A DNA stretch of 28,659 nt, from contig CAZBZN010000008.1 in NCBI GenBank assembly GCA_964496415.1, forward strand, positions 1 to 28,659. Direction: 5' to 3'. Positions 3,956-27,084 of the stretch are shown in pieces (the stretch's first letter is position 1; every line of letters begins with the position of its first letter). Under the pieces are notes generated by a model that saw only the letters and a list, made by a program, of their open reading frames with translations, had not been told where the DNA came from and made no database searches. This stretch comes from Candidatus Micrarchaeota archaeon (lineage in GTDB: Archaea; B1Sed10-29; JAJRYS01). A program made the translations under genes and the position numbers.

Positions 3956-3990
3956 GAAAATAAAAACGAAAAGCTGTTTTATAAAACTTT

Positions 3991-4028
3991 TGAAAAACAA
4001 GAAAAAGGTTAAGGAGCAAAAGCTCCTT
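3991..4028 (-). terminator. Hairpin plus T-tracts downstream of the major pilin
   Basis: Stem AAGGAGC-4nt-GCTCCTT (4011-4028) followed on the minus strand by AACCTTTTTCTTGTTTTT. Confidence 0.65.
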
Positions 4029-4036
4029 CAGGTTTC

Positions 4037-4474
4037 TCATGCTTCACAGTCAGCGTAGATTATTCCACTGTCTGTGTGTGTTAATCCTCCTTCTGAAGTG
4101 TAGGTAACATTTACATTTAGGGTAACTGATCCTCCAGGAGTACAAGTAACTGTTGACAAATTCACTAGTTTCTGTTGTCCAGCGCCTATGGTAAATCCAT
4201 TGTCAAGTATTTCACTTCTTGATGTGCCGTCATAGTATGTTATATTAACGTTTCTTAAAGCCTGCCCTGCAACATTTCTGAATAATATCTGAGATGCATT
4301 TGTTCTGTTAGTAATTGTCCACTCTGCTGGTACTAAAACATCAAATCCAGAAGATCCTGTAGAGCTTGTTCCAAAAACTCCAGACCTCCATAATACTAAT
4401 CCTACTATTACGACCACGAGTATTGCCCACCCGTAGGTCATTAGGTATTCTAGTGCTCCTTGACCTTTCCTCAC
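4037..4474 (-). CDS. Archaeal type IV pilin, probable major pilin
   Basis: Class III signal MRKG|QGALEYLMTYGWAILVVVIV (Q+1, E+5); GTG start at 4474 after SD GAGGTGA; own TATA (4519-4528) and terminator. Confidence 0.9.
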   Translation of the reverse strand: MRKGQGALEYLMTYGWAILVVVIVGLVLWRSGVFGTSSTGSSGFDVLVPAEWTITNRTNASQILFRNVAGQALRNVNITYYDGTSRSEILDNGFTIGAGQQKLVNLSTVTCTPGGSVTLNVNVTYTSEGGLTHTDSGIIYADCEA

Positions 4475-4576
4475 ATGCGTCACCTCAAATTAATTATCTG
4501 TTTGAAATAAAGAAACAGTATTTAAAAAAGTTACTGGTTGATTTCAAATATTTTTCAAAAAAACAGTTTTAAAACT

Positions 4577-5602
4577 TTACAATGCCATTATCCCTGAAAG
4601 GATTTTTGAAAGCACTACTAACACGACAAAGAATACCACAAGCCCGATGAACAAAAACACAGGAATCATCTTTATACCTTCTTTTTCTTCACCATACTTT
4701 AGCACGCCAATCACTAAAGAAGCAAAAATAGCTGAAATTGAAAGACTGATTATTGAAAACCATCTTAATACTCCAACGTCTATTGATGACTTCTGAGGAG
4801 TTATCACTGGAAAGTTTACATTAACTATTGGTGCTTTTGGAATTGCTTCTATGGAAGTGACTCCAACAGCTGTTCTTATTGACTGGCTTAAGTCAACAAA
4901 ATTAATAGAAGTAGCATACAAAATAGGAGCAGCTATCAATACTGCTATAATTGTAAACAACACGTAAGCACCAATGTTTGCTTGAATTTCCTGTTGAAGG
5001 ATTTCCCCCATCCTGATATCATCAGCTGTTTTTTCAAGCAAGCTGGCTAACTCCCCACCTGACCTCATTCCCTCAACAATCAAACCAACTACTCTCTTAA
5101 GTAATGGTGAATTCACTCTTTTTGAAAAATCAATAAGAGCTTCATCAACTGGCTTTCCTGCAAGAGTCTCTTCACCTATCAAGTTAATTTCTTCACTTAA
5201 AACCCCGAACTCAGGTCTTGCTGATAATAGTATTGCTTTATCAGGAGTAATCCCAGCCCTTATATTTGCTGAAATCAACTGTAAAGCATCTGGAAGGTTT
5301 TTTTCAATCTGTTTTGCCCTTTGATAAGCACTGTAAGATAAAAAGAAATAAGCTGAAATGAAAAAAACAAACAACAATCCAAAAAACAAGGCAAGATATA
5401 AGAAGAAACCTAATTCCCATATGTAAGAGGCAAGCAAAGCTATTAGAATAGAAAGTAACAAACTATAAACAAACACCACCCCGAGCCATACTTCTTCTTT
5501 TACTGCAATTCTTGCATAAAAAAGAAGATTGCCTACTTTAGCCTTAAAACTCTCAGGAAAAGCTTTCCCAAAAGTCATAAACATTCTTTGAATTCTTCTC
5601 AT
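4577..5602 (-). CDS. Type IV pilus membrane platform protein (TadC/GspF family)
   Basis: IEKNLPDALQLISANIRAG, EFGVLSEE, GMRSGGELASLL; multiple TM helices. Confidence 0.92.
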   Translation of the reverse strand: MRRIQRMFMTFGKAFPESFKAKVGNLLFYARIAVKEEVWLGVVFVYSLLLSILIALLASYIWELGFFLYLALFFGLLFVFFISAYFFLSYSAYQRAKQIEKNLPDALQLISANIRAGITPDKAILLSARPEFGVLSEEINLIGEETLAGKPVDEALIDFSKRVNSPLLKRVVGLIVEGMRSGGELASLLEKTADDIRMGEILQQEIQANIGAYVLFTIIAVLIAAPILYATSINFVDLSQSIRTAVGVTSIEAIPKAPIVNVNFPVITPQKSSIDVGVLRWFSIISLSISAIFASLVIGVLKYGEEKEGIKMIPVFLFIGLVVFFVVLVVLSKILSGIMAL

Positions 5603-5604
5603 GC

Positions 5605-6492
5605 TTAAAACCTCAGCTTTGGTCTTTTCATCTTAAGGAATTTTACGAAAAACAACTGAAATGCTGAAAAGAAACCTAAGAAAACAACAAACATGCCATT
5701 ACTTATAGTTATAGGCATTAACGAAGACAATACCATAATCAAAGCAATTCCCATTGTCGGGAAGATAACTGTCAAAAGCAAGTACATTAAAGCCCAAGGA
5801 CTTAGTTCTTTACTGAACCTCTGAAGCCTTACTCTTTCTTCTTCTGAAAAATCCCTCACTAATCCTTCAAGAACATCAGCTAAGTTAGTCCCAGCCCTGA
5901 GAGCATTAGAAATCTGCCACACTGCACGACGTAAGTAAACAGATGGTGTCCTTAGCATCATCCTGTCTAATGCTTCAAGCTCAGGAGTTCCACCATTTAT
6001 TTCTTTAGCAGTTATCTCAAACTCTTTAGAAATAACACCATAACCAGCTTCACTGACAGAAACAATAGCATTGTATAATGGAACCCCTGACCTTACTTGA
6101 ATAAGCAAATGCCTTAAAGCAAAAAGAATATCTTTATTCAGTTCTTCTGCTTTCTTTTTCAAAAGCATTGAAGGATAATAAAGCACCTGACCAGTAATGA
6201 ACAATGAAAGAACAAAACCAGACAACAGGATAATACTAAAGATTTCATGAAACTGTGATGCTGAAAGCAAGAAAACAACCAAGCTAATCCCTATCACGAA
6301 CATGACAAACACGTAGAAAAAAGTAAGTATGGTTACTGAAAAATACTCTACTGGCGTGAACGGAAAATCAAGCTGAGCCAATTCTGCTTTTAAAGAAGGT
6401 TTTAAACTAACCAATTTTCTTGCTATGGGATTAAATACTCTTGAATACTTTTTTGCTTTGCTTGCTTCAAACGGAAGGAAAGGAGTCTTCAA
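5605..6492 (-). CDS. Second type IV pilus platform protein (TadB/TadC/GspF family)
   Basis: ILFALRHLLIQVRSGVPL, YGVISKEF, ISNALRAGTNL; TM helices; TTG start. Confidence 0.9.
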   Translation of the reverse strand: MKTPFLPFEASKAKKYSRVFNPIARKLVSLKPSLKAELAQLDFPFTPVEYFSVTILTFFYVFVMFVIGISLVVFLLSASQFHEIFSIILLSGFVLSLFITGQVLYYPSMLLKKKAEELNKDILFALRHLLIQVRSGVPLYNAIVSVSEAGYGVISKEFEITAKEINGGTPELEALDRMMLRTPSVYLRRAVWQISNALRAGTNLADVLEGLVRDFSEEERVRLQRFSKELSPWALMYLLLTVIFPTMGIALIMVLSSLMPITISNGMFVVFLGFFSAFQLFFVKFLKMKRPKLRF

Positions 6493-6498
6493 AAAACA

Positions 6499-7995
6499 TC
6501 ACTCATAGGGTTTGTTTTTTTCAACATAATCAAGAATCTCGCTTTTGTTCTTATAATACTTTGCAATTACTTCCCCGACCTTATGCACGTCATTGATCTT
6601 ATTATCAACCATCCATGCTAGTATTCTTTTCTTTTCACTTAAGTCTTCTTCAAGCTCTTTTTGAGTAAGTCCTGTAAGCAAAGCAATTTCTGAAAACACT
6701 CTCATCGAGTCTTTCTCTTTAACTATCTTATCTTCCCTTGGCCTCCAGCGGTAAAGCAGCCTGATATCAACTCCTGTCTCTGCTCTTGACTCTCCAACAG
6801 GCATTACTTCAGCAACTTCAATAGTCCTTCTAATTCCAAGCCTCCTATGCCTGTATTGAATAATTATCAAGTGAAGTGATTCAAGCAAAGGCTCTGGGAT
6901 ATTAATCGGCGGCGTGATTAGTCTTCTTTTTACTTGCTCTGCACTGTCAGCATGAAGTGTTGAATAAACAGAATGACCAGTATGCATTGCCTCGAACAAA
7001 ACCTCTGCTTCTCTTTGCCTCCTTATCTCCCCCACAACTATCCTGTCAGGCCTCATACGTAAAGCATTAATCATTAAATCAAGCATTGAAACTTCTCCTT
7101 TTCCTTCTGGGTTAGGCTCTCTTGTAGTAAGAGGAACCCAGTGCTGGTATTTTGGAAGAGAAAGCTCTCGCGTATCCTCAATACTGACAATCCTTTGATT
7201 TGGTTGAATGAATGGAAGAATAGTGTTCAAAGTACTTGTTTTTCCAGAACCAGTACCTCCTGAAATTAAAACATTAAGCTCGTATTGAATGCATAACCAT
7301 AACAACGCGGCTATTTCATTATTAAGAGTATTAAGGGTTATGAAGTCAGTTATTGTCCAAGGTTTCCTAGCAAACTTCCTAATGGTTATCGTGTTTCCTT
7401 TAGTGGAAATCGGGAACAAAGTAGCGTTAACCCTATCTCCTGTTATCAAATGAGCATCCATTAAAGGATTCAAGATATTTATCTGCCTTCCTACTCTTCT
7501 CCCAATCATGTTAGCATAATCAAGAATGTTTTCCTCTGAAGGCAAGAAAATATTTGTCTTAAGCCACCCGTACCTACGATGATAAACCCACACAGGTTCA
7601 GCAGAACCATTAATCACTATTTCTTCTAATTCCTCGTCACTTAAAGGAACCTCAATATCGCCAAGGCCAAGCATTTCATTAACAACCAAACCTACAAGAA
7701 GCTTTACTTCGTCAGGCTTTAAGTCAGGCAAGTACTCCTTTATCTTTTTCTCAGCATTAGTCAAAAACTCCTGCTTCATCTTTTCAAAAATCCTTGGGTC
7801 TAAAACCTCCTTCATTCTTACTTTTGAAAGTTTTATGAGCTCAGATTTCACCTGAGAAAGAATATTCTTAGTAGCAACTCCAACTTCAGGAATCTTGATT
7901 TCATAAACAGGAACAAACTCTCCAGTATCTGAAATTATTACATCAGCAATAAGTCCTGAAGCATTAACCTTGTAAGATTCAAGTTTTTTCTTCAT
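6499..7995 (-). CDS. Type IV pilus assembly ATPase (VirB11/CpaF/TadA family)
   Basis: GGTGSGKT, SIEDTREL, LRMRPDRIVVGEIR, AMHTGH..STLHA. Confidence 0.96.
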   Translation of the reverse strand: MKKKLESYKVNASGLIADVIISDTGEFVPVYEIKIPEVGVATKNILSQVKSELIKLSKVRMKEVLDPRIFEKMKQEFLTNAEKKIKEYLPDLKPDEVKLLVGLVVNEMLGLGDIEVPLSDEELEEIVINGSAEPVWVYHRRYGWLKTNIFLPSEENILDYANMIGRRVGRQINILNPLMDAHLITGDRVNATLFPISTKGNTITIRKFARKPWTITDFITLNTLNNEIAALLWLCIQYELNVLISGGTGSGKTSTLNTILPFIQPNQRIVSIEDTRELSLPKYQHWVPLTTREPNPEGKGEVSMLDLMINALRMRPDRIVVGEIRRQREAEVLFEAMHTGHSVYSTLHADSAEQVKRRLITPPINIPEPLLESLHLIIIQYRHRRLGIRRTIEVAEVMPVGESRAETGVDIRLLYRWRPREDKIVKEKDSMRVFSEIALLTGLTQKELEEDLSEKKRILAWMVDNKINDVHKVGEVIAKYYKNKSEILDYVEKNKPYE

Positions 7996-8948
7996 GGAAC
8001 CACCAGCAGGAATATTATCAACATTACTGCAATAGCAATCATTAAGAAAGCTGCTCTTTTCCTTCTCTTAAGAGAAAGTTCATGCTTTAATTCCTTAAGC
8101 CTTGACTTGTGCTCGATTATTTTTCTTTCAATTTCCGACAAAGTAATAGCAAGGTTTTTTATCTCCTCCTCAATCTCTTTGATTTCTTTATTAACCTTCT
8201 TAATCATATCACTTAGTTCTTTTTTCTCATTCAATAATTCATTTGACCTTAACTTTATTTTTTCAAGCTTTCTTTCAAGTTTCTTCTTCTCATTAAGTAA
8301 AGACCTCATGCTCTTCTCAAGTTTGCTTATCTCCCTTTTTCTTTTAGCAGCTAACTGTTTATACCTCACGCCTAACTTCTTTCCCTTATACTTTTCAGCT
8401 TTCTCAGAATAAGCCTCAAGCTTCTCTTTTTCTTTCTTCAACTTATCCTCAATCTTTGAAACATGCTTAGATACCTTTTTAAGTTCTTCCTTAACGCTAT
8501 CCATTTCAAAAAACACTTTCTCAATCTTCTTCTGAAGCTTTGAAACATCAGATTCAAGCTCCTGCACCTTAGATGATTTTTCTTTAACTTTTGCTTCTGC
8601 TTTTTTCTTAGAGATGAGGACTCCTGCAAGCTTTTTTTCAAGGTTTGAGATTATTCCTTTTTCATTCAAAATCTCCTGTTTAAGTCCTCTTTTTCTCATA
8701 AAAGAAAAGAGTTTTCTTTCAACTGGTGGTTTTTTACTCTCAGCTTTTCCTGGAAGAGTCAAGTAAGGTGGGACAAAAGGATTTGCTGGATAAACCAATA
8801 CTAACAAGCCATTCTTGTCAAGAATGTTAGCCCATTCTTCAACTTTTTCAAAAGGAACCTCAAGCTCTCTTGAAATAGTTTCAAGGTCAACAGCTTCTCT
8901 TTCTTTTACAAGGTCATAAATCTTGTCAACAACACTTTCAAGCTTCAT
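7992..8948 (-). CDS. wHTH + long coiled-coil protein with C-terminal membrane anchor
   Basis: Start MKLESVVDKIY after SD GGTGA; N-terminal wHTH-like pattern, ~190-aa K/E heptad region, terminal hydrophobic helix; ATGA overlap with the ATPase gene. Confidence 0.8.
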   Translation of the reverse strand: MKLESVVDKIYDLVKEREAVDLETISRELEVPFEKVEEWANILDKNGLLVLVYPANPFVPPYLTLPGKAESKKPPVERKLFSFMRKRGLKQEILNEKGIISNLEKKLAGVLISKKKAEAKVKEKSSKVQELESDVSKLQKKIEKVFFEMDSVKEELKKVSKHVSKIEDKLKKEKEKLEAYSEKAEKYKGKKLGVRYKQLAAKRKREISKLEKSMRSLLNEKKKLERKLEKIKLRSNELLNEKKELSDMIKKVNKEIKEIEEEIKNLAITLSEIERKIIEHKSRLKELKHELSLKRRKRAAFLMIAIAVMLIIFLLVVP

Positions 8949-8952
8949 TAAA

Positions 8953-9969
8953 TCACCAAGAGTAAACAGCCTTATCCTTTCCCCTTTCAACCATTACCCC
9001 AATCACATGATTGAACATGACTGTTGTTCCGCTACTATCCACGCTTAATACAAATACTCTATTGTTTAAAAATGCTTTTGATTTGTTGTTATAAAGCTCT
9101 GAATTTGAAAAGTTCTGGTCTTCGTCAACATAAACACTCTCATAAATTGAATCACTGTCATAATCCATTGATATTAGGTAATAAGTTTTTCCAAAAAGAG
9201 AAATTGAACCATAGTACTTTTGGGGGTTGGAAGAAGCAGGATAATCTGGTTCTATGAAACCAGGATTTGACGAAGATAACGTTGTTGAAAGCAACTCTCC
9301 CTGCTGGTTTAAAGAAGAAGCATTTCCTAGCTCAAATAAAAAACTCTGGTCAACTGCGGATATATTTGAATAATCAATTAAAATTTTGGTTGGAGAAACT
9401 GTGAGATTAATGCTTGCAGAAGAATAATTCAAGAAAACCCAGCACTCTTGACTAATGTTCTTAGCAAAAACATTGCCTGCTTGGATTACTACTCTAATTT
9501 GGCCTGAATCAGTACAGTTGTCAGTTATTGACGCTATTCCTGAAAAATTCAACCAAGCATGAGAATAATTAAGAAGAATTGACGAATTGTTTGAAAGGTA
9601 GTTCATCAAATAAACAACGTTATCTCCTATCAGTGTTATTGAATCATTAAAAACAGAATAATCAAAATAAATAGATGAGTTACTAAAACCAGAGTAATTT
9701 TCTAAAAACAAAGAATAGTAATACAGTTTTAATGACTTGTCTTCCTTAGAAAAATTATTGACCAGATGTAAGTGAGTGCTATTATTCTCCCAAGACAAGC
9801 CTAAAATCTTCTGAGTGTCTTTGATTATTGAATCAGCATCATTGCTAACACTTAAAGTAGAAACCAGCAAAGGCGTTTTTGAAGATGTTGAAACTACAAA
9901 AACACCTAAAAGGAGAATAATTACTGCAGAAATGAAAAAAGACAATGCAATGTAAATAAACCCTTTCAT
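8953..9969 (-). CDS. Large minor pilin-like protein
   Basis: MKG|FIYIALSFFISAVIILLL class III-like signal; beta-rich body with many N-X-S/T sequons. Confidence 0.7.
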   Translation of the reverse strand: MKGFIYIALSFFISAVIILLLGVFVVSTSSKTPLLVSTLSVSNDADSIIKDTQKILGLSWENNSTHLHLVNNFSKEDKSLKLYYYSLFLENYSGFSNSSIYFDYSVFNDSITLIGDNVVYLMNYLSNNSSILLNYSHAWLNFSGIASITDNCTDSGQIRVVIQAGNVFAKNISQECWVFLNYSSASINLTVSPTKILIDYSNISAVDQSFLFELGNASSLNQQGELLSTTLSSSNPGFIEPDYPASSNPQKYYGSISLFGKTYYLISMDYDSDSIYESVYVDEDQNFSNSELYNNKSKAFLNNRVFVLSVDSSGTTVMFNHVIGVMVERGKDKAVYSW

Positions 9970-10401
9970 TTACCACACCTGAAGAACCGCTATTGCCTCA
10001 TAATCATCAAACACAAAAGAAACCCTTGAACTTATGATAGTATCTTGCTTCCCAGGATAAGCTTTCTTAGGATTTGTGACCGAATAAGAGTCAACATACT
10101 GCGAACCATTATAAACATACAAAGTAATTCTTTCCCTTAATCCTTTTGGAAAAACACTTCTTAGTTTTTGCCTTATAAAAGACTCTGCTTGGTTTTGATT
10201 ACCATTAACCAAAGCACTTGCCTGAGAAGATAAAAAACCTTCCTTTTTCAAAGTTTTAAGAATGCTTAAAGAATACCTATAAACTTCATAATGCTTAAGA
10301 GAACTATAACTAGTGTTCATCACAGTTACAGCTACTGCTAAGGTCGAGAATAAAATCAACAAAGCAATAACAGAGTCAAGTGAGAATACAAACCCTTTCA
10401 T
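9970..10401 (-). CDS. Minor type IV pilin
   Basis: MKG|FVFSLDSVIALLIL class III signal; operon position. Confidence 0.8.
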   Translation of the reverse strand: MKGFVFSLDSVIALLILFSTLAVAVTVMNTSYSSLKHYEVYRYSLSILKTLKKEGFLSSQASALVNGNQNQAESFIRQKLRSVFPKGLRERITLYVYNGSQYVDSYSVTNPKKAYPGKQDTIISSRVSFVFDDYEAIAVLQVW

Positions 10402-10820
10402 GAGTAAGTCTTCACCTCAATTACTTTTTCACCATCAAGCAAAATCATCCTTTTAGCAGTCACAACATAATCAGACTTCAAAGAATAATTCCCTTTTGAA
10501 AAAACAACCCCATTAGAAGAATAAACTCTTCCATTAAGGTCAGTCACTCTTATTGAAAAATTATATGGTAAGCCAAGCTCTTGTCTTATTTCATCAACTG
10601 ATTTTGAAAAAAACTGAGTAAAGTATTCCTTAGGAAAACTCTGTGCTTTCATCTCTAAATAATCAGCAGCATACTCTGCTTTCTGCTCAATCTGAGAATA
10701 AACCACTAACTCAGCATTCCTAGCAGTAATTGAATTAATCATGAAAAGAGCTACTGCAACAATAAGAAGCATTACTCCAACTGAAGTAATCGCGTCAGCA
10801 GTAAACACCTGTGCTTTCAT
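10398..10820 (-). CDS. Minor type IV pilin
   Basis: MKA|QVFTADAITSVGVMLLIV class III signal; ATGA coupling. Confidence 0.8.
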   Translation of the reverse strand: MKAQVFTADAITSVGVMLLIVAVALFMINSITARNAELVVYSQIEQKAEYAADYLEMKAQSFPKEYFTQFFSKSVDEIRQELGLPYNFSIRVTDLNGRVYSSNGVVFSKGNYSLKSDYVVTAKRMILLDGEKVIEVKTYS

Positions 10821-11203
10821 TTAACATACACCACTCCATCAACGTTCTCAATGGTTGAATTTTCTTTCCATTCAATTACTCTAACCTCACCTAAAAGCTT
10901 CACTGAATAAAGATGTTCTCCTGAATAAACTTCAAGAATCCTTGCAGAAGAATTCAAATTAATAGAATAATTGAAGCCACCAACCTGCTGAGGAACCGTA
11001 TAATAAAACCTAGTACCGTGTCCTGCTAAAAATGCTTTATTCAAAACCATTCCAAGCTCCTGAGTAAAGTCAGCTAACTCAGCTTGCCTTAACTCCTGGT
11101 TTACTTTAACATAATAAGACAAAAAAATTCCTGAAAACACTGTAATCATGACAAGCAAAAAAGTAAAGCTTTGCATGAACTCAAGAGCAGACTGTGACCT
11201 CAT
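10817..11203 (-). CDS. Minor type IV pilin
   Basis: MRS|QSALEF class III signal (Q+1, E+5); ATGA coupling. Confidence 0.82.
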   Translation of the reverse strand: MRSQSALEFMQSFTFLLVMITVFSGIFLSYYVKVNQELRQAELADFTQELGMVLNKAFLAGHGTRFYYTVPQQVGGFNYSINLNSSARILEVYSGEHLYSVKLLGEVRVIEWKENSTIENVDGVVYVK

Positions 11204-13431
11204 TCCCCCACCACTACTAAAGTACTTTCACCACTGTAACCAACTGAAACAGCTATTGGCTTTGTTGAGCTAATATTAAGATAATTTGTATTAACTGTTC
11301 CAGCGTAAGTTGAATAAACAGTTGTAGTATTAGTATCTTCACCATTAACGTAAACATAAGTATCTGCACTTGGAATAAAGAGAAGGTAATCTAAAGATGA
11401 CGTACTTGAAGCAAAATAACCCTTCAAATAAAAGTTACCATACTTATATGCTGGCTGATCTATGCTTGACCCTGACCAAGGATTAGCTGCCATAACTATT
11501 TTTTCATTAGAAGAAACTACTAATGTCCCCAAAGGATTACTTGCAAAATCTTTGAATTTATCACATTCTCTTAAAATAGTGGATATTGAATATTCTTCTG
11601 TTTGATTACTACCTAATGTTTTTAAAACATTACAAACTCCTAAAGTAGGAATATAACCAACCTGTGGATAAATAGTGAAATTAAGCTCTGCTGGGCCACT
11701 AACAGCAAATACTATGACAGATGTTCCCGTCTTGTCATAAATAGGAACAGCAAGTTTACTTGAAAGTGAATCTGAAGAATACAATAATGCTTCTGTGCCA
11801 TCAGGTTCATAAACCACTATGCCAGTACCATTTAATTCTATAATTATAGAAGAAGCTGCTGCGTATTCTTCTTCTACTGAACCATTAACAGGAATTGTTC
11901 CACTAATAGTTTGCTTCACTCCCCCTGTAGCATCAAGAGTTTTAACAACATAAGATAATGAACCAAAAGGAGCACTTATCCTAACAGAACCTGCTTGCTT
12001 TATAATACCATAATAAGTTGATGAAAGCTGTGATGGAGTTAAAAATGAATACATCCCCTCTGTTGAAGGACCTGAAGTAACGACAGCAGAATCATTACAC
12101 TGCACATGTATTAAAGCAGGATATTGCCATCCAGTACCGCCAAGAGAACTCATTGTCAAAGTTGAAACATTATCAAACAAATGAGATTGACTATACTTCA
12201 ATTCTCCTGTCCTATCATTCACAGTTATGTTACAAGAAATAACCTTTCCAACAGTATATACATTTATTTCAGAATCAGAAGAAGAAGCTATACCATAATA
12301 ATCAGTTGAAATAACTGTCATTGGCTGAGATTCAGGTCTTGCTTTTACTACAAAGCTTTTGTTGACTTCAACCCTAAAAAAAGCATCCTCAACTTTAGCA
12401 GTCCAATTACCAAGACTTGCTTCACTTCCAAGAGTATAATTACCATAATAAGTAGAGTATGAAAAGGGACCTGAATAATCCTTTGTCTGGAGAGCGTTGT
12501 CTAATATTCTAATATAATAATCTGTAGAACCTGTCCTTTGAATTTTATAATAAACAGTTGAAGGACAAGCATAATAAACTGATTCAACTACTTCAACCGA
12601 AGGTTCAGCAGGAGGATATACTATAAAAGTATCTGATTCTGTCCTGGTCTGATATCCTGTTTTTGAACAAGTAACATTCCAATTAAAAGTCCCATTATCA
12701 GAAAAAGAACGGTAGTATTCATATAAAGAAGATGTTAAATTATAAGACATATTATAATACTCCCAACCTCCAGAAATATTAAAACCAATTATACATGAAG
12801 CATTAAGAATAGGGTCTGAAGAGTTTGAATAATTAGCATAAAAACCAATTGTTTCATTGACTCTTTTTATATAAAAATCAGTATCATCCCAAATTGAAAG
12901 ATTAGTAAAAACAATAGCAGGAGGCGTATAATTTACCGTAAGATTCATATAATCTACATATGCATACTGGGTTCCTCCTGAAAGTCTTGAAGCTTCAAAT
13001 CTTAAGAACACATTATTTGCTTGAGATACATTAGTAATATATGAAGTTAAATCACACGAACTTATAGTATCAGTAGAAGCTGTTGAAGGAGAACACACCT
13101 GGATCCATTGAGTCCCATTATACCAGTATACTTTTAAGTCAACTCTAGATGCTTGATTCTCATAATGCTCAAAATAATAAATAACTGAATTAATAGTTGA
13201 ATTTTCAGGGATGTTGTTGTTAGTCCAGTTAGCATCAATTGAATCAGTTTTATCTGAAGAACTCATGTCTAGTTCTGCTCTAACGTCATCAGAAACATTA
13301 ACCTGGGAAAGAACATCAGTACCATCATCTTCAAAAGCAGAGTCAGGAGGCTGTGAAAAAATATCTGCAAGAACAGGTGTTGAAAACAAAAACATAAAGA
13401 AGATGATTGGAATCAAAATCCTTAGATACAT
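11200..13431 (-). CDS. Secreted multidomain beta-rich protein, candidate pilus adhesin
   Basis: Sec-type signal (..TPVLA|D), no C-terminal anchor, Cys pairs, many sequons, embedded among minor pilins. Confidence 0.75.
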   Translation of the reverse strand: MYLRILIPIIFFMFLFSTPVLADIFSQPPDSAFEDDGTDVLSQVNVSDDVRAELDMSSSDKTDSIDANWTNNNIPENSTINSVIYYFEHYENQASRVDLKVYWYNGTQWIQVCSPSTASTDTISSCDLTSYITNVSQANNVFLRFEASRLSGGTQYAYVDYMNLTVNYTPPAIVFTNLSIWDDTDFYIKRVNETIGFYANYSNSSDPILNASCIIGFNISGGWEYYNMSYNLTSSLYEYYRSFSDNGTFNWNVTCSKTGYQTRTESDTFIVYPPAEPSVEVVESVYYACPSTVYYKIQRTGSTDYYIRILDNALQTKDYSGPFSYSTYYGNYTLGSEASLGNWTAKVEDAFFRVEVNKSFVVKARPESQPMTVISTDYYGIASSSDSEINVYTVGKVISCNITVNDRTGELKYSQSHLFDNVSTLTMSSLGGTGWQYPALIHVQCNDSAVVTSGPSTEGMYSFLTPSQLSSTYYGIIKQAGSVRISAPFGSLSYVVKTLDATGGVKQTISGTIPVNGSVEEEYAAASSIIIELNGTGIVVYEPDGTEALLYSSDSLSSKLAVPIYDKTGTSVIVFAVSGPAELNFTIYPQVGYIPTLGVCNVLKTLGSNQTEEYSISTILRECDKFKDFASNPLGTLVVSSNEKIVMAANPWSGSSIDQPAYKYGNFYLKGYFASSTSSLDYLLFIPSADTYVYVNGEDTNTTTVYSTYAGTVNTNYLNISSTKPIAVSVGYSGESTLVVVGE

Positions 13432-14501
13432 GGTCTCACCTCAAACACAGTAGTCTTGGTTTTTTCAGAATTATTTACTACAACAGTATAATTACCGAAA
13501 GTAGTAACCTGTGATTGATCCCAATAATGTACAAAAGACCCCTCATTGTCTGTTTGAATAACCACGGGATAACCAGTAACGTTATAACCTAAAGGATCAA
13601 GGATACTAATAGTTAAGTTGCTTGACGCTGGCCAATTTTTCCCTCTTATTTCAACCAGTTTTCCCTGATAAAACTCATAAGCTTCTTTTGAATAGCTAGA
13701 ATCATTGTATAATGTAATCGTATAGTTTGGCAGAGTGAGGTTTCCTGAATAAACATTTAACTCTATTATTATCTCTCTTGTAGTGTTTCCTGATTCTGCG
13801 ATTATCTTTCCAGAATAATAACCCAAATCAACATTATCAGGCACTGTTATATTAAAAAATATTGTTTTGTTAGAATAAGAACTTAAAGTGGTTTGGTTTG
13901 TTGAAAGGGTTATCCAAGAAGCAATATCCCCTGTCTTTGTAAAGTTAATAGTTAAATCATAGTCAGAGTAACTTATAACAGTAAAGTTAAGCTGGGTGCT
14001 TGTTCCTGCTTGAATGTTTTCGTTAAAATAAGAAGGGATAGCATCAAACTCTAACTCATAAGGTATTATTAACACATAACCATCTGAAGTCATCTGAACA
14101 ATGTACAATTGATTACCTGGATTTCCAAGCCAAGAACCTCTTACTTCAGGAGTAGTTGATTCAAAAACATCAGTCTCTCCATTTCTTGTCTGAAGCCTGA
14201 GGTTTATTTCTTTTGAAGGAACAGAAGGGCCTGTCCAAGCAGGCTTTCCAATATAAGAACCAGAATAGTTTACTCCTCCAGGAATTGTTACCTGAACAGT
14301 TATCCTTGAGCCAACACCCTGAGAATAAACATACTCAGCTGCTTTTGCAAGAGCTTGAACAGCTTGTTTTGCCTGAATCACCCTCGTAGACTCCTGAGAA
14401 GTCATGTAGCCATAATAAATAAAAGGAGTAAGTATTGCAATTACCAAAGATATTATCAACAAGTACTCTATAGCTGACTGAGAAAAATGCTTGAAACGCA
14501 T
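13422..14501 (-). CDS. Pilin-like protein with C-terminal Ig-like domains (first gene of the pilus operon)
   Basis: Start moved to ATG 14501: MRFKHFS|QSAIEYLLIISLVIAIL; the longer upstream start overlaps the divergent gene. Confidence 0.82.
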   Translation of the reverse strand: MRFKHFSQSAIEYLLIISLVIAILTPFIYYGYMTSQESTRVIQAKQAVQALAKAAEYVYSQGVGSRITVQVTIPGGVNYSGSYIGKPAWTGPSVPSKEINLRLQTRNGETDVFESTTPEVRGSWLGNPGNQLYIVQMTSDGYVLIIPYELEFDAIPSYFNENIQAGTSTQLNFTVISYSDYDLTINFTKTGDIASWITLSTNQTTLSSYSNKTIFFNITVPDNVDLGYYSGKIIAESGNTTREIIIELNVYSGNLTLPNYTITLYNDSSYSKEAYEFYQGKLVEIRGKNWPASSNLTISILDPLGYNVTGYPVVIQTDNEGSFVHYWDQSQVTTFGNYTVVVNNSEKTKTTVFEVRPCI

Positions 14502-14543
14502 GGTTTTAAAAAAACACTTTGCATATTTATTTGTTGATGAACC
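14502..14543. promoter_or_regulatory. Compact bidirectional promoter between the pilus operon and the second KaiC-like gene
   Basis: 42-bp gap; TTTTAAAAAA (from 14504, +) and ATAAATAT (14530-14523, -), each about 22-40 nt from its ATG. Confidence 0.55.
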
Positions 14544-15341
14544 ATGCCAAGAGCTAAAAAACCTGTGAAGAAAAAAACAAAACAGCAGAACAACAAACGC
14601 AGCAATAAAAAGACTAAACAAGAAGTAAACGCTGAAGAGATAAAAAAATTAATGGCTCAAGCAGTTGAAAAAGAAACAGGAACTATTAAAAAAATAAGCA
14701 CTGGGATAAAGGAACTTGACAAAATGATTAAAGGCGGGTTTCCTTTTCCAGGAGTAATCCTCGTTCTCGGAAAACCAGGAGTTGGAAAAACTCCCTTTGC
14801 AATAGCATACGCTCACGAGGGGATAATGAAAGGTCAAAAATCAATATACGTGTGCTTGAATAATTTTCCTGAAGAAATAAAAGCAATAGCTAAAAGCATA
14901 GGGTATGATCTTGAATCAGCAGAGTTTATTGATGCTTACTCTTGGCTTATTGGGAAAAAAAGCGAGTATGAAGATGTGTCTGCTTTAGACCCTACTGGAA
15001 TTCTGGAGCTAATGGAGGAAAAACTAAAAAAAGGACCAGTGGAAAGAGTAGTACTTGACTCTCTTTCCACAATGTTCTTATATCACGATGAGAAAACTAT
15101 TCAAAGATTTGTACAAGCTTTCACAGCAATGATAAAAGAATACGACGCGTCAGCATTAATCCTTGTCGAGGAAGGAACTTGTTCTCCTGAAATGATTTCA
15201 ACTCTTGAATACCTAACTGACGGAACCATACTCCTTGAAAATAAAAAACTCTTCATAGCAAGACTTGTTGGCATAGAAGTAAAGAAAAAAGAAGCAATAG
15301 TAAACATCACGAAAAAAGGAATAGAAATAGAAGTAGTGTGA
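14544..15341 (+). CDS. KaiC/RAD55-like ATPase with basic N-terminal extension
   Basis: ISTGIKELDKMIKGGFP, GKPGVGKT, RVVLDSLS, LEYLTDGTI. Confidence 0.9.
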   Translation: MPRAKKPVKKKTKQQNNKRSNKKTKQEVNAEEIKKLMAQAVEKETGTIKKISTGIKELDKMIKGGFPFPGVILVLGKPGVGKTPFAIAYAHEGIMKGQKSIYVCLNNFPEEIKAIAKSIGYDLESAEFIDAYSWLIGKKSEYEDVSALDPTGILELMEEKLKKGPVERVVLDSLSTMFLYHDEKTIQRFVQAFTAMIKEYDASALILVEEGTCSPEMISTLEYLTDGTILLENKKLFIARLVGIEVKKKEAIVNITKKGIEIEVV

Positions 15342-22616: not shown

Positions 22617-22723
22617 AGCGACTTGTTGATCAAATTGTTCAACAAGCTATAAGGGTAGGGCAGCCAGGAGTGCCCGTCGGGCTCATAACCCGAAGGTCAG
22701 AGGTTCAAATCCTCTCCCCGCTA
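22617..22723 (+). tRNA. Initiator tRNA-Met(CAT) with a 32-nt intron (22621-22652) at acceptor-stem position 4/5
   Basis: Spliced AGCG|GGG TA GGGC AGCCAGGAGT GCCC G TCGGG CTCATAA CCCGA AGGTC AGAGG TTCAAAT CCTCT CCCCGCT A; A1:U72 and three G-C anticodon-stem pairs; canonical BHB at the junctions; CCA not encoded. Confidence 0.9.
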
Positions 22724-23026
22724 CTATTTTTTGAAATAATAAAAACATCTTTTACATATTCTTCTTTCAACAAATGTCACACCTTCTGCTTCAAGTAATT
22801 GTTTTTTCTTTTTAACCCCTCCTGGGCCTGAATAGCCTCCTAAGCAACCGTTCTTTTGAACCACTCTATGGCATGGAACAAATGGAGCATAGGGGTTCTT
22901 CTTCATAAGCCAAGCAACTTTTCGAGCATTAACTCCAACAGCCTTTCCGAGTTCTGAATAGGAAACGACTTTTCCTTTTGGAATCTTGCATGTTAAGTAA
23001 TAAACGCTTGCAGTTACTTTATTCAT
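22724..23026 (-). CDS. ogt: O6-methylguanine-DNA methyltransferase (single-domain MGMT)
   Basis: IPKGKVVSYSEL, active-site PCHRVV, LGGYSG..KKQLLEAEG; start MNKVT after SD GGTGA. Confidence 0.9.
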   Translation of the reverse strand: MNKVTASVYYLTCKIPKGKVVSYSELGKAVGVNARKVAWLMKKNPYAPFVPCHRVVQKNGCLGGYSGPGGVKKKKQLLEAEGVTFVERRICKRCFYYFKK

Positions 23027-23027
23027 T

Positions 23028-23690
23028 TCATTCACCAGAAGCTTCAAGAAAATCAAGGGCTTTGTCAAGATTAGGTGAAAAAGGAATAGAATCAAGCAGT
23101 TTTCGTACTTCTTCATTGCTTATGATTACTTCTAAAAGTTTTTCAAAAAGCTCTTTGTCATATTCTTTGAATGGAAGTGAGTAAAGTTTTATCCTTATTT
23201 CATCTCTAAGGCTTGGTGACTCATAACACATCAGCAAATTAGCTAATTCTAATCCAAAGTTTTCAGTTTTTGTTTGCCTAAACCATTTATGCATTATTGT
23301 TACTGCATCTAAGTTTATTTCAGGTATTGCTGGGAATTTTAACAATATTTTGCTTGGCTTTAAGTAAAAGAAATTAACCTGGTATAATTCAGTTAATTTT
23401 CTTGGTTTTTTCTTAACATTAGCTTTTTTCAGATAGTATGACAAAAGCTTTCTTGACTTATTAAACAACAAATCCCGATGCAAATATTTTACAATAAACT
23501 GCTTTTTGCATAATTTTTCTAAAAATTTTTTTCTTAAAAACTTGACCACAAGTTTGTCAGGAGTCTTTGGGTAAAATTCAGGATATAGAGCTTTTAAGTA
23601 CCTGACTATTTCAATTGGTGTTCTTGGGATAGGATTTGAGCAAAATTCAACTATTTTTTGTTCAATTTCAAGTGTTTTTTCTTCTTGCAT
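23028..23690 (-). CDS. Hypothetical basic protein, possible N-terminal wHTH
   Basis: 220-aa ORF ending 1 nt before the ogt start; helix pattern KIVEFC..TPIEIVRYL..FLEKLCKKQFI. Confidence 0.65.
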   Translation of the reverse strand: MQEEKTLEIEQKIVEFCSNPIPRTPIEIVRYLKALYPEFYPKTPDKLVVKFLRKKFLEKLCKKQFIVKYLHRDLLFNKSRKLLSYYLKKANVKKKPRKLTELYQVNFFYLKPSKILLKFPAIPEINLDAVTIMHKWFRQTKTENFGLELANLLMCYESPSLRDEIRIKLYSLPFKEYDKELFEKLLEVIISNEEVRKLLDSIPFSPNLDKALDFLEASGE

Positions 23691-23775
23691 GCAAAAATTA
23701 TGTTTGTTTAAGTATAAAAAACTATTATACTTAACAACATGTTCTTGTGAGATTTTTAGACCCTGTTTTAATCAG

Positions 23776-24009
23776 TCATTTCTGGACAAGAACAATATCT
23801 TTTATTGACTTCACTCTTTTGAACATTATGCTGTTTTCCTGAATCATCTTCTTAGCATTCTCTGAAATAAGGCTTCTTATTGGCTTAGTTGTTAATCTCA
23901 CAACTTCTCCACTTTCAGCATTAAGGATCACATCATACACTTTTCCTATGTATCCTGCTGAATCTTCATAAATGTCCATTCCATAGATTTCAGAAAGCCT
24001 TATGCTCAT
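23776..24009 (-). CDS. PRC-barrel domain protein (CdpB-like)
   Basis: LSEIYGMDIY..GYIGKVYDVILNAESGEV..VKSIKDIVLV; SD GAGGTGG. Confidence 0.85.
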   Translation of the reverse strand: MSIRLSEIYGMDIYEDSAGYIGKVYDVILNAESGEVVRLTTKPIRSLISENAKKMIQENSIMFKRVKSIKDIVLVQK

Positions 24010-24086
24010 AAAACCACCTCATCACCGTTGCCTAAAACAAATAATCAAGCATTATTTAAAAACCTTTGCTGTTAATGCTTGTGATT

Positions 24087-24209
24087 TCAGTTTTTGTCTT
24101 TAATAAGGCTTACAAATACCTTTCTTTCGAGCTTGTAGTCAGAGTTAAAGCCAGAAAGTATTTTTTCAAGCTCATCTATTCTCATTTCCCCAATTGTTTT
24201 TATTTTCAT
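24087..24209 (-). CDS. Unannotated 40-aa small protein
   Basis: MKIKTIGEMRIDELEKILSGFNSDYKLERKVFVSLIKDKN, preceded by SD-like GGAGGCGAT; 39 bp after the ATPase stop. Confidence 0.55.
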   Translation of the reverse strand: MKIKTIGEMRIDELEKILSGFNSDYKLERKVFVSLIKDKN

Positions 24210-24248
24210 TCCATCGCCTCCGCACGGTTTTAAAGGTCAGGTATGGGT

Positions 24249-25484
24249 TTAGTCAGTTGAAAGTATCTTTCTTACATGTGGAGCAAGGCGGTAAGCATAG
24301 CCCCTTCCTTTTAGGTTTGGTTCTTCAAGTACAAGAGGGTATAATTCTTTTATTTTTGGCCTGTTTTCAGGCTCCTTGTATTTTCCTTGCAGCCTTTTTA
24401 TCATATGCCTTATTGTGTCATACTTGTCGTTTATGTCTTTTGCTATTTCTCTTGAAGTTTTTGGCTCTCCATTATACAAGCACATTACTATTCTTCTTTG
24501 AAGAGGAGATAACTCAGCTAAGAATTCCTGTTTTTCAATATTGTAAGTTTCTTTTGGCACGTACGGTGGTGCTTCTCCTTCAACCAATCTTTCAAGAGTG
24601 CTTGTTTTCTCTTCTACTTCTTCTTCAATTTCTTCTGTTTTGCTCTCAGTTACTTGTTCTGTTTCATGTTTTGTTTCACTTTCAATGCCTTCAAGGACTT
24701 TTTTTATTGTGTTCTCGTCAAGAGAATGTAAGTCTTTCTTTATAGCGTATTCTACGAGTTTTGAGCAGTTTTCAATTATTTCCCTTGGAATCATTCTTGA
24801 GATCCTTACTATTTCTTTCATTCCTTGTTCTGAAAACAAGTAAGCTTTTGACTTTGCAAGTATTTCAATTCTTTTTTTGATTAATTCACCACCTTCTTCA
24901 GTGTATAATGGTCTTAAGCCTTCACATAAGTCAAGCCTGTCTTCTAAATAAGCTGGAAGAATTTTTTCTCCTTTTATTAGTTCTGGTTTTCCAGCAAAGA
25001 TTATTGAGAAAGTGGTTCCGTTTTCTGACAAGCTTCTTAAGTATGAAAAGGTTTGTTCATCAAGCGCGTGTGCTTCGTCAAATATTAAAATTGTGCGTTT
25101 TTTTATCTTTTCATTTATTTTTTTATAGTCATGGTCTTCAATTTTTATTAGTTTAAGTTTTCTTAATAATGAGCCACCGCATAGCGTTTTTATTTTTTGT
25201 GCAATGTATTCTTTTTTTGGAGCATCTTCAAATAGTAAAACATTATATTTTTTTGAAAATTCTTCTGCTGCTTTTTTGATTAATGCTGTTTTCCCATACC
25301 CGTATTGTCCGTATATTACTGCGTAGTTTTTTCCAAGAGCAGCGAATTGATATAATTTTGTTAGCAGGTCTTCAAATCCTACAAATAAAGAGGGGTCTGT
25401 TAAGTGTATGAAGGGATTTTCCATTTCCCAGCCTTGTTTTTGTTTCCATTTTTCTATTTTTTCAGCTTCTTGTTCAAAGGTCAT
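24249..25484 (-). CDS. ExeA-like AAA+ ATPase with acidic linker and C-terminal winged helix
   Basis: WEMENPF, Walker A GQYGYGKT, Walker B LIFDEAH, IIFAGKPEL, LEDRL; C-terminal LSPLQRRIV..TSREIA..YDTIRHMIKRL..GRGYAYRL; start at MTFEQ after SD GGTGA. Confidence 0.85.
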   Translation of the reverse strand: MTFEQEAEKIEKWKQKQGWEMENPFIHLTDPSLFVGFEDLLTKLYQFAALGKNYAVIYGQYGYGKTALIKKAAEEFSKKYNVLLFEDAPKKEYIAQKIKTLCGGSLLRKLKLIKIEDHDYKKINEKIKKRTILIFDEAHALDEQTFSYLRSLSENGTTFSIIFAGKPELIKGEKILPAYLEDRLDLCEGLRPLYTEEGGELIKKRIEILAKSKAYLFSEQGMKEIVRISRMIPREIIENCSKLVEYAIKKDLHSLDENTIKKVLEGIESETKHETEQVTESKTEEIEEEVEEKTSTLERLVEGEAPPYVPKETYNIEKQEFLAELSPLQRRIVMCLYNGEPKTSREIAKDINDKYDTIRHMIKRLQGKYKEPENRPKIKELYPLVLEEPNLKGRGYAYRLAPHVRKILSTD

Positions 25485-25523
25485 TTTTTCACCAGATTTA
25501 TAGCTCATTAATGTTTTATAAAC

Positions 25524-25662
25524 TTAACGGGTAAAAACGAGTATTAATACTCGGAATTACTCGTTAAATATACATTAAATTTTACTCGTTATTTATAAAT
25601 AAAATAAGTTTGTACACGGTTTTACCCATTAATTTTTACTCGTTAATACTCGGTATTACCCG
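25524..25662. repeat. Array of TAC(T/C)CG hexamers with 10-bp period
   Basis: Copies at 25528(-), 25538(-), 25548, 25558, 25583, 25637, 25647, 25657 and a variant at 25623; perfect palindrome CGAGTATTAATACTCG at 25538-25553. Confidence 0.85.
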
Positions 25663-25823
25663 CTTTATTTTTGTTGTTTCATGGGAATACTTGAAGTAAG
25701 CCCCCTGGCTGTAAAACCTGTTTTTAAACAAAATTAGGTCAAAACCGTTATACTGCAATGAAATTTGAGAAATAGAACAGACCTTTTTCCGTCACCGTGC
25801 TCTTGTTTTGCTGCGTCACCAAC

Positions 25824-25862
25824 TTATTGGAGGCGATCTCCAATTTTATTGGAGGCGATCTC
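25824..25862 (+). repeat. 17-bp perfect direct repeat TTATTGGAGGCGATCTC x2 (22-bp period)
   Basis: Copies at 25824-25840 and 25846-25862. Confidence 0.9.
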
Positions 25863-26062
25863 TCACATTTTACTTTATTTTTATTGTTTTCTCACTTTTT
25901 AATACTTTCTCTCACATTTTTTAATCTATACCTCTTTTTTCCTCTTTTCTCTCACTTTCCTTATTGTTTTTTGCCTTCTCTCACTTTTTCCTTGTTTTCC
26001 TGTCTTTTCTCACTTTTTTGAAACAACCAGCAGTGCAATATTTTTTTACTATAATCTCTCAC
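25859..26062 (+). repeat. Seven TCTCAC repeats, most followed by (A/T)TT, in a pyrimidine-rich strand
   Basis: CTCAC cores at 25862, 25891, 25911, 25951, 25980, 26009, 26058. Confidence 0.8.
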
Positions 26063-26230
26063 CAAAAAAACAATATTTTATTTTTTTAAATTAATACTTT
26101 CAAACATATCTTTTTTAGTTAAAAAATAGATAATATTACTTTAAAAATATATATTTTTGTTAACAATTTTTCATAGTAATCTTTAAATACATACTTTTTG
26201 TAATATTGCTTGAAGTTAATAGGTGGTTGT

Positions 26231-26515
26231 GTGTTAACTAGGATTTTTTTCAAAGAAAAGCCATTGAATGCCCTAGTATCTTTGGCTGAAAAAGACAAAG
26301 TTTGGTATGCTTCAATGCTTGCAAAAAAAATCGACTGCACTTACCCGCATATGCTTAAGATTCTTGATATCTTTGAAAAGAATGGGTTGGTTGTTACAGA
26401 AGGTCAAGGAAGAATAAGAATAGTAAGACTCACGCAAAAAGGTGAGGATTTAGCAGCAGACTTGCAGAATGCCTTAAGAAGAATAAGTAGAATTGAGGGA
26501 AGTGAAAATAAATGA
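26231..26515 (+). CDS. Winged-helix (MarR-like) DNA-binding protein
   Basis: YASMLAKKIDCTYPHMLKILDIFEKNGLV..GRIRIVRLTQKG; GTG start after SD AGGTGG. Confidence 0.85.
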   Translation: MLTRIFFKEKPLNALVSLAEKDKVWYASMLAKKIDCTYPHMLKILDIFEKNGLVVTEGQGRIRIVRLTQKGEDLAADLQNALRRISRIEGSENK

Positions 26516-27084
26516 AAGTAAGGGAAGTAACCCTTGATGATATTGAATCCTTGTTTCCTGTTTACAAAAAATGCAAAGGAAAAAGGCCTCTTAATGCTTA
26601 TCCTTTGGCTGATTGGATAATTAGAAAAAATGTGGTTTTCTTTTTAGCTCAGGATAAAAAAGGAAAAGTTGTTGGATTTACTGTAATAAGACCAAAAGGA
26701 GAACAGGCTACTATTGACATTTTCTGCTTTGATCCTAATTGTAAGGAAAAGGGCTTGAAAAAGAAACTTTTGGAGACTAGCTTAAACAAGCTTGAAGTGA
26801 ATTATGTTACTGTTCATGTTTCAAAGAAAAGCAAACTAGCTGATTTTTATAAGCAAGCAGGTTTTTCAGTAGTTGAGGAGATTCCTGCAAAAGGAGGAAA
26901 ACAACTGCTTCTTGCAAAAACTTTACATTCAGCTAAGAAGAAAAAAACCACAAAAATATTGCAAAAGAAAAAGGTGTTTAAAAAGAAAGCTCAAGAGCTT
27001 CTTCAAGAAAACCTTGAAAAGCTTGAAAAGTCTTACTCAGAAGGAGATGAGTTTGGGCCAGACTTACTTGACATTTATTATTAA
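26512..27084 (+). CDS. GNAT-fold acetyltransferase-like protein with charged C-terminal tail
   Basis: MKVREVTLDDI, GKVVGF, motif-A-like DPNCKEKGLKKKLL, FYKQAGF; ATGA overlap with the wHTH gene. Confidence 0.75.
   Translation: MKVREVTLDDIESLFPVYKKCKGKRPLNAYPLADWIIRKNVVFFLAQDKKGKVVGFTVIRPKGEQATIDIFCFDPNCKEKGLKKKLLETSLNKLEVNYVTVHVSKKSKLADFYKQAGFSVVEEIPAKGGKQLLLAKTLHSAKKKKTTKILQKKKVFKKKAQELLQENLEKLEKSYSEGDEFGPDLLDIYY

Follow-up and report, generated by a model that had tools for sequence, protein, structure and literature searches.

A candidate chromosomal origin core with an exchangeable ATPase module in a DPANN archaeal phylum

We analyzed a 746-bp non-coding gap in a 28,659-nucleotide stretch of DNA (hereafter the window), which is contig C8 of a 687-kb, 91% complete genome of a Candidatus Micrarchaeota archaeon (labelled G000). 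The gap separates the starts of a gene for an ExeA-like AAA+ ATPase and a gene for a small winged helix-turn-helix (wHTH) protein, and it belongs to two separable modules: a core of one-way B boxes, an AT-rich tract and the small wHTH gene, and an accessory module of the ATPase and its A array of repeats. Our preferred reading, to which we give a rough probability of 0.55, is that the gap is the core of the phylum's chromosomal origin, located apart from cdc6 and carrying an exchangeable accessory module on its left. It would most likely be an oriC served in trans by an ordinary Cdc6. An origin or segregation locus had been proposed here by an earlier, sequence-only reading of the window, and the origin part of that proposal gained support from skew breakpoints, origin recognition box (ORB)-like elements and phylum-wide conservation. 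All counts out of 31 below refer to the genomes in the GTDB phylum of G000; those relatives that have names carry the label Ca. Micrarchaeota or Nanobdellati archaeon.

Strand composition and the conserved core

GC skew, measured at fourfold-degenerate sites and corrected for gene strand, changes near the locus in several relatives. On four long contigs, the best breakpoints fell 0.7–4.7 kb from the locus (-0.7 kb in G017, +4.7 kb in G011, +2.6 kb in G007, and +1.2 kb in G025). An extreme of the strand-composition curves, as at an oriC, was thus found within 5 kb in four relatives and only weakly in G000. In G017 (569 kb, taken as a circle), a free two-breakpoint fit placed one break at the locus and gave arms of 284 and 285 kb. 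Skew amplitude in this genome was 0.32 within 40 kb of the locus and ~0.10 at 240–280 kb, and no repeat-rich, AT-rich gap was present at the opposite break. That opposite break has a gene that looks SMC-like by its sequence and one ftsZ no more than 10 kb away (G017:C1:63742-66906 and 81911-83011).

Other genomes were less clear, and several observations weigh against a boundary. A strong switch within 5 kb was found in only 4 of 20 stretches, the contig of G000 itself reached a z of only 1.5, and five genomes (G012, G004, G030, G411, and G211) showed no switch. We note that the z-values treat sites as independent and hence overstate. Weak skew with breaks 1.4–6.3 kb away was seen in G392, G019, G373, G233, and G000, and G300 had a break 16 kb from the locus; the remaining stretches gave no clear signal. 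Taken together, we hold it highly probable that the locus is a replichore boundary.

The core of one-way CTCTCAC boxes, AT-rich tract and small wHTH gene is conserved across this DPANN phylum. The small wHTH gene is present as a single copy in 22 of 31 genomes, including 11 out of 11 high-quality ones. Across these 22 loci we counted 124 forward and 5 reverse B boxes; the array exceeded all 200 shuffles in 18 loci, the last box stood 157–177 nt before the wHTH match in 19, and the AT-rich tract always came next after the array. The ATPase, by contrast, occupies the locus in just 8 of 31 genomes.

The gap itself is as gene-free as first read. Its bounds, 25485-26230, were exact (ATPase ATG at 25484-25482 on the minus strand, small wHTH GTG at 26231), and it is the longest clearly non-coding gap established in the window; the one longer gap left by the gene caller, 13432-14543, is an uncalled open reading frame (ORF). 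The AT-rich tract was likewise described correctly as extreme: 26041-26190 has the lowest GC content among 67,783 150-bp windows (13.3%, next 18%), giving the locus the intergenic, AT-rich candidate unwinding element of an ORB-type archaeal oriC. Of the three repeat families listed in the gap, two are significant arrays. Family A has eight TACYCG cores at 25528-25662 (shuffle mean 0.29; eight reached in 0 of 2000 shuffles) and family B has seven YCTCAC boxes at 25861-26057, all on the plus strand (shuffle mean 0.25; reached in 0 of 2000), and both are the densest clusters of their own motif in the genome (A 8, next 2; B 7, next 3). The third, family C, is a duplication and not a conserved family. 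Its 17-nt pair was not conserved in relatives, and we interpret it as recent, because it is found nowhere else in the genome and one 22-bp unit is missing at 25824 in a contig from run X3.

We considered and rejected other explanations of the gap. An RNA element was set aside, as the gap had no Rfam and no tRNA match, and a 74-aa ORF (25797-26021) is a side effect of the T-rich strand, with no counterpart among the ORFs of relatives. Against an assembly artefact, a contig from run X1 (possibly the source run) covers 22670-26194 without difference, and the same arrays occur in G012. A polarity resembling that of KOPS was also rejected for B, since every copy lies on one side of the tract, with no flip.

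The absence of a canonical ORB, as first reported, stands in part. A search for the canonical core (up to two mismatches) gave chance-level matches and none in the gap, but the gap does contain a conserved ORB-like element, which we call D (25685-25706). The D motif is GAATACYGGAASTR followed by a G-run or C-run, with the spacing of the common ORB, given as TCCA[CG]T[TG]GAAA[TC][GA]AAGGGGT in Table 1 of PMC4164010. The copy in the gap is the third-best site for the phylum motif in this genome. Strict D sites were found within 3.7 kb of the locus in 13 out of 13 cases (1.42 Mb on eight contigs; reversed control 0), D is present in 20 of 31 genomes (control 0), and D copies align in register with the common ORB, scoring 10–15 of 20 positions. 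Several points nevertheless count against D as an origin element. The copy in the gap matches the common ORB at only 10 of 20 positions, and the 15 of 20 scored by the best copy is reached by 32 sites in the genome; the pattern was itself built on these loci; in this genome the two highest-ranking copies of D are on another contig (C4:14553 and 14613); and D was absent near the locus in seven stretches of other phyla. An ORB(-)/DUE/ORB(+) pattern, with the DNA-unwinding element (DUE) between inverted ORBs, is described for archaeal origins in bioRxiv 10.64898/2026.08.15.744077. No such pair flanks the tract here, where one D lies left of the B array and none right of the tract.

D elements also occur in other contexts. 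The C4 site (14553-14632) contains two perfect D copies and an inverted partial copy between aIF5A-like and methyladenine-glycosylase-like genes (names from the sequence), and it is kept in G011, G012, and G013, partly as an inverted pair; a second origin, a Cdc6 sink and an operator in this family are candidate readings. In four genomes (G021, G007, G025, and G026), though not in G000 or G017, D lies ~80 nt upstream of the mcm start, which suggests that the initiator may regulate helicase transcription. Two D elements in G017 are inside the gene of a 220-aa protein that neighbors the locus (Table 1).

An ordinary Cdc6 is encoded in 29 of 31 genomes, and in eight out of eight genomes with both on one contig, cdc6 is 16–40 kb from the locus. 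In G000 it is on contig C1, separate from the locus, so the adjacent cdc6 of an ORB-type oriC is missing. There it stands head to head, with ~100 bp between, with a gene that looks SepF-like by its sequence. An origin beside cdc6 was rejected on the basis of this short intergenic space and because no D was found in 28 cdc6 loci (1.5 kb around the C-terminal domain).

Parts of the core were also found beyond the phylum. In genomes of a distant ATPase clade (Aenigmatarchaeota-like by Atlas taxa, the placement of individual genomes being unconfirmed), the same small wHTH is present in 21 out of 22, and a B box lies 208–264 nt upstream of it in 10 out of 21, directly before a tract of 3%–13% GC. 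Five genomes of a third phylum, which we take to be Altiarchaeota, had no B box upstream of the small wHTH. One-way B boxes were also found in the gaps of distant ATPase genes (48 of 61), whose adjoining small wHTH belongs to another family; the reader of B may thus be Cdc6 or the small wHTH acting from another site. Skew at the distant-clade ATPase loci showed no switch. In G188 (L302:6230-6400), a second tract of extreme AT-richness (6% GC) accompanies an inverted B box ~1 kb downstream of the small wHTH gene.

The ATPase, its repeats and its replacement

Genes of the accessory module are less widespread than the core, with a strong ATPase orthologue in 10 of 31 genomes. Where the ATPase is present, its wHTH recognition helix and the repeat upstream of its gene co-vary across lineages, in line with the cognate site first proposed. 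Helix YDTIRHMIKRL is paired with TTACTCG, NATIRHMMHRL with TTACACG, and KGSVAKQLSRL with TGACTAA or TGACAC. Helix DIRSVGSLIRKL is paired with TAAGTCA (10 of 12 among the loci listed), and in the distant clade HAIRSVNNILRRL is paired with TTCACGT in 61 out of 61 distinct metagenome loci. TTCACGT half-sites number 18–30 per 550 bp upstream of the distant-clade gene compared with 0.7 within it (64 of 80 loci used, those with enough upstream DNA). We note that each of the five pairings represents a clade, which is not the same as an independent event proven on a tree. Judging by this co-variation, the ATPase is predicted, with good confidence, to bind the A array. The sites do not spread along the chromosome as those of RicO, RocS, and RacA do, as A-motif density 1.5–30 kb from the locus equaled the density further away on four contigs.

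By sequence, the ATPase is ExeA-like. The NPF, DEAH, and FAGKPEL motifs read earlier were all found, and with GxxGxGKT and PRE they make up the set expected of an ExeA-like AAA_22 protein. Profile matches were to AAA_22 (PF13401; E 1e-12, 48.7 bits vs a cut-off of 27) and TIGR03015 (E 1e-14), although the latter scored 54 bits against an equivalog cut-off of 324.5, and a secretion-system context is also missing. In hhalign, the E value was 1e-34 (99.9%) against 11 ExeA-like proteins and 2e-6 against six Cdc6, the closest sequences are ExeA-like (24%–29% identity), and VchTnsC matched by profile at E 5e-9. Cdc6 models did not match at E 0.1, HTH_5 was not among the Pfam matches, and blastp against the six Cdc6 covered only the P-loop; the genome's sole PF09079 (Cdc6_C) match is C1:491-805, not the ATPase. 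A plasmid search returned only distant bacterial ExeA-like genes.

The predicted structure contains an AAA+ core, a lid, a disordered linker (residues 277-321) and a wHTH, which is the AAA+/lid/C-terminal wHTH fold of Orc1/Cdc6. Top fold matches were Orc1/Cdc6 (2qby, 7jgr, 1w5s; Z 17.6–18.2, root-mean-square deviation [rmsd] 7.6–10.8), TnsC and MuB scored Z 15.8 and 15.7, and Foldseek ranked RuvB first. The comparison with Cdc6, ExeA, and TnsC/MuB that had been called for thus gave an ExeA-like sequence with a fold nearest Orc1/Cdc6, then TnsC/MuB. Across 41 sequences there is no variation in the Walker A lysine, the Walker B DE, R191, R213 or R242, and the protein is intact (Walker A/B, Arg finger, sensor II). 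Its AAA+ core also contains a basic-hydrophobic insertion at residues ~110–122.

Gene neighborhoods of the ATPase differ between the phylum and the distant clade. At the locus, its neighbors are PRC, wHTH and GNAT genes. The distant loci (L167-L246) are flanked by radA in 50 of 80 cases, an RPA-like gene in 37 and a 2'-5' RNA ligase-like gene in 50 (names are this genome's best matches), as well as by a divergent small wHTH of another family. No transposase gene was found beside the ATPase among matches to this genome's genes at 8 loci and 80 distant loci; no transposase-profile scan was made.

In 11 loci of six other families, the slot of the ATPase is occupied by a replacement protein made up of a basic-hydrophobic helix at the N terminus, a long helix and a wHTH. 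This coiled-coil/wHTH protein was found in 15 of 31 genomes, using a profile built from five of these 15, and it was not found in any of the eight whose locus carries the ATPase, so the two are mutually exclusive there. G017 has neither. G027 and G030 have both, but in these the ATPase is detached from the locus, with repeats still upstream of its gene. The replacement protein fits, in outline, the combination of wHTH, coiled coil and amphipathic helix found in RicO-type proteins, whereas the ATPase has only a candidate helix. Several of the coiled-coil/wHTH genes (L037-L039, L041, L043, and L051) contain local repeat copies within the coding sequence just before the wHTH, shaping STRD../LTRQ.. 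runs.

Because the ATPase is replaced by another protein elsewhere and is missing in one genome with a sharp switch, we conclude with considerable confidence that it is not an essential initiator. The alternative initiator of the sequence-only reading was accordingly not upheld: Cdc6 is nearly universal in the phylum, the ATPase is rarely at the locus, G017 has the sharpest two-arm skew without it, and no skew switch lies beside the ATPase where it has moved away.

Proposed mechanism, alternatives and known systems

We propose that a single Orc1/Cdc6 would bind D, and perhaps B, and load MCM; the AT-rich tract would then melt and forks depart both ways. The small wHTH, or Cdc6, on the one-way B boxes may act as an origin co-factor that sets the melting site. 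On the left, the ATPase would use its wHTH to bind the A array and so also sit over its own promoter, and would repress or tune its own gene. It would oligomerize with ATP and most likely hold the origin at the membrane or help separate sister origins, and in other families the coiled-coil/wHTH protein in the same slot appears to do this job. The tether is suggested by the slot shared with a RicO/RocS-like protein and by the basic-hydrophobic insertion in the AAA+ core, although the hydrophobic moment of the insertion helix is not exceptional. This is the weakest step of the mechanism, and we put a role of the ATPase in origin tethering or segregation slightly below even odds.

The ATPase could instead be a self-regulated transcription factor or a firing modulator at the origin, with A as its operator and no part in tethering or segregation. 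A arrays do accompany the ATPase gene everywhere, even away from the B/AT-rich core, and further A sites are not scattered about the locus in the manner of ram, ricS, and parS. However, the site density in the distant clade is far beyond what autoregulation needs, the ATPase motifs are invariant, and the slot is shared with a protein built as a DNA-membrane bridge. In addition, 6 of 10 windows from another phylum have the ATPase gene within 5–19 kb of cdc6. We consider this explanation unlikely.

Strand polarity bears on whether the locus is an origin or a terminus, or ter-organizing site, at which B and D would be fork-trap or organizer sites and the tether would link the terminus to the division site. 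In G017, G011, G007, and G025, the G-rich strand is directed at the locus, the arrangement of a terminus under the bacterial rule, and the ribosomal-protein superoperon also faces the locus in three of these genomes and 16S in one (G017); both count against an origin. A XerA-like integrase 2.4–4 kb from the locus in one family only (G016:C11:9473-9955, G015:C4:13346-13828) and the nearby PRC-barrel and SepF-like division genes are also consistent with a terminus. The polarity of G000 is the opposite, with orthologues of genes pointing away being G-richer (0.17 vs 0.10, p 0.001, or 0.01 with the ribosomal block left out) on both arms out to 60 kb, the textbook sign of an origin. As polarity is lineage-dependent, it cannot decide between the two. 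What argues against a terminus is that skew is sharpest at the locus and fades to the antipode, where there is no origin-like gap, together with the ORB-like sites, the AT-rich tract, the linkage to cdc6 and the presence of D at mcm promoters. Tyrosine recombinases were found in only 10 of 31 genomes and not in this one, which therefore lacks the signs of an Xer/dif terminus. We regard a terminus as improbable and, given a boundary, an origin as the probable alternative. In favor of an origin, genes within 20 kb mostly point away from the locus on seven out of seven contigs (shared synteny). Leading-strand GC bias is apparently opposite in the four relatives compared with G000 despite conserved gene order.

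That the ATPase is an alternative or auxiliary initiator (compare Mc-pRIP), which binds A and loads or opens the origin where present, is very improbable, as its AAA+/lid/wHTH order, its best fold matches to Orc1/Cdc6 (Z 18.2, rmsd 10.8, 320 aligned) and its array of cognate sites next to an AT-rich tract, both here and in the distant clade, are outweighed by its dispensability, its replacement by a non-ATPase, the prevalence of Cdc6, its ExeA-like sequence by hhalign, and detached ATPase loci without a skew switch (11/23 either way; 10 windows).

The proposed origin core served by Cdc6 resembles Orc1/Cdc6-ORB origins in its AT-rich tract, its ORB-like elements, whose G-run is equally distant from the GAA core, the skew extreme, and the single Cdc6 in the genome region. 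It differs in that cdc6 is 16–40 kb away, with only ~100 bp upstream of it; that the left half of D is AATAC in place of TCCA; that the elements extend over ~4 kb, partly in genes, and do not flank the DUE; that a separate one-way CTCTCAC array leads into the DUE; and that skew polarity is reversed in four genomes. According to PMC5905446, the skew-defined origin of a diapherotrite adjoins cdc6. Origins of the WhiP (Sulfolobus oriC3) and Mc-pRIP (MJ0774, Methanococcales) types adjoin a non-cdc6 wHTH or AAA+/HTH gene, as described in PMC4009838, and share this feature with the locus. Methanococcales are reported to lack cdc6 (PMC4009838; Ori-Finder-Arch preprint), unlike this phylum, and WhiP has two wH domains where the small wHTH has one (94 aa); we made these comparisons by description only.

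The accessory module has partial counterparts in bacteria. RicO of Staphylococcus aureus, RocS, and RacA are described as having a DNA-binding wHTH, a coiled coil and an amphipathic helix, with sites near the origin (bioRxiv 10.64898/2026.03.06.710092). The replacement protein, a putative membrane binder, shares these parts, but in reversed order, with the helix N-terminal and the wHTH C-terminal. The sites here also form one array and are not spread over hundreds of kb, and the ATPase in the window has an AAA+ core, not a coiled coil. With ExeA/GspA, TnsC, and MuB, the ATPase shares the AAA_22 core with NPF, DEAH, and PRE and, for TnsC and MuB, the fold; unlike them, it has a C-terminal wHTH with a cognate array, is chromosomal, single copy and archaeal, and has no transposase, secretion operon or peptidoglycan-binding tail beside it.

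In SegAB of Sulfolobus and in ParABS, an ATPase gene has binding sites directly upstream and lies near the origin. The ATPase gene here is similar, with putative binding sites directly upstream and near the putative origin, but its product is not a deviant-Walker-A ParA, the ATPase and DNA-binding domain are in one chain, and no SegB/ParB partner was seen. Further literature consulted is PMC4010727, PMC3914693, PMC7111523, and PMC13228585.

Neighboring features and implications

Coordinates of the features at the locus are given in Table 1. The 220-aa protein had no match in Pfam, NCBIfam or PDB-sequence searches. The PRC-barrel protein presumably belongs to the CdpB-like cell-division family. 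Elsewhere in the window, 3284-13431 encodes a KaiC-like ATPase and, after it, a cluster that resembles type IV pilus genes (pilins, TadC-like membrane proteins, and an assembly ATPase; read from ORFs), and at 22654-23116 a tRNA-Met(CAT) adjoins a gene with an O6-methylguanine methyltransferase DNA-binding domain.

Table 1. Features of the locus and its flanks, in window positions
Feature	Position	Strand	Remarks
Conserved 220-aa protein	23028..23690	-	Flanks locus in 7/7 aligned orthologues; ORB-like D sites in or just beyond it in relatives
PRC-barrel protein	23776..24009	-	PF05239, E 5.6e-8; conserved neighborhood; directly abuts core in G017
ExeA-like AAA+ ATPase, 411 aa	24249..25484	-	AAA+ core, lid, disordered linker, C-terminal wHTH
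Family A, 8 TACYCG cores, both orientations	25520..25662		Over ATPase promoter, TATA-like ~25516; putative ATPase-wHTH sites
Family D, single ORB-like element	25685..25706	+	GAATACTTGAAGTAAG, then C-run instead of usual G-run
Family C, 17-nt repeat x2 (25824/25846)	25824..25862	+	Polymorphic 22-bp tandem duplication; small hairpin
Family B, 7 one-way YCTCAC(TTT) boxes	25859..26062	+	Lead into AT-rich tract; last box 177 nt before wHTH match
AT-rich tract, 12% GC	26063..26200		Candidate DNA-unwinding element; TATA-like box 26182-26189 of wHTH gene at right end
Small wHTH protein, 94 aa, KP..WY.S.L.K.IDCTYPH	26231..26515	+	Single copy
GNAT acetyltransferase	26512..27084	+	Coupled to small wHTH gene; conserved neighbor across order
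Second conserved wHTH protein, 122 aa	27064..27432	-	Convergent with GNAT gene

We found no published description of the locus, its motifs or the ATPase family in the largely open literature searched, and none of a segregation system in these cells; the Ori-Finder-Arch supplements (family ORBs, Nanobdellota predictions) may bear on novelty. The locus is real and conserved, and this putative variant of an archaeal origin is apparently undescribed. A broader DPANN origin design, in which cdc6 is uncoupled, B boxes and the small wHTH position melting, and a plug-in module links origin and membrane, whether as a passive anchor or as an ATP-driven AAA+/wHTH machine from the ExeA/TnsC side that polymerizes on the A array, is a speculative extension that we think doubtful. 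If true, it would represent a new type of segregation system, combining motor and centromere binder in a one-chain AAA+ protein, and a leading-strand GC bias that flips between lineages.

Replication start and chromosome separation are essentially unmapped in the smallest archaea, and searches beside cdc6 would overlook this locus. It offers a precise candidate oriC for a whole phylum and three short motifs with named candidate binders. The five helix/repeat pairs form a natural specificity series that is approachable with purified domains and without culture. The reversed skew means that origin calls from cumulative GC skew may be inverted in these genomes, and should the ATPase module act as a tether or motor, it would be a new kind of segregation device.

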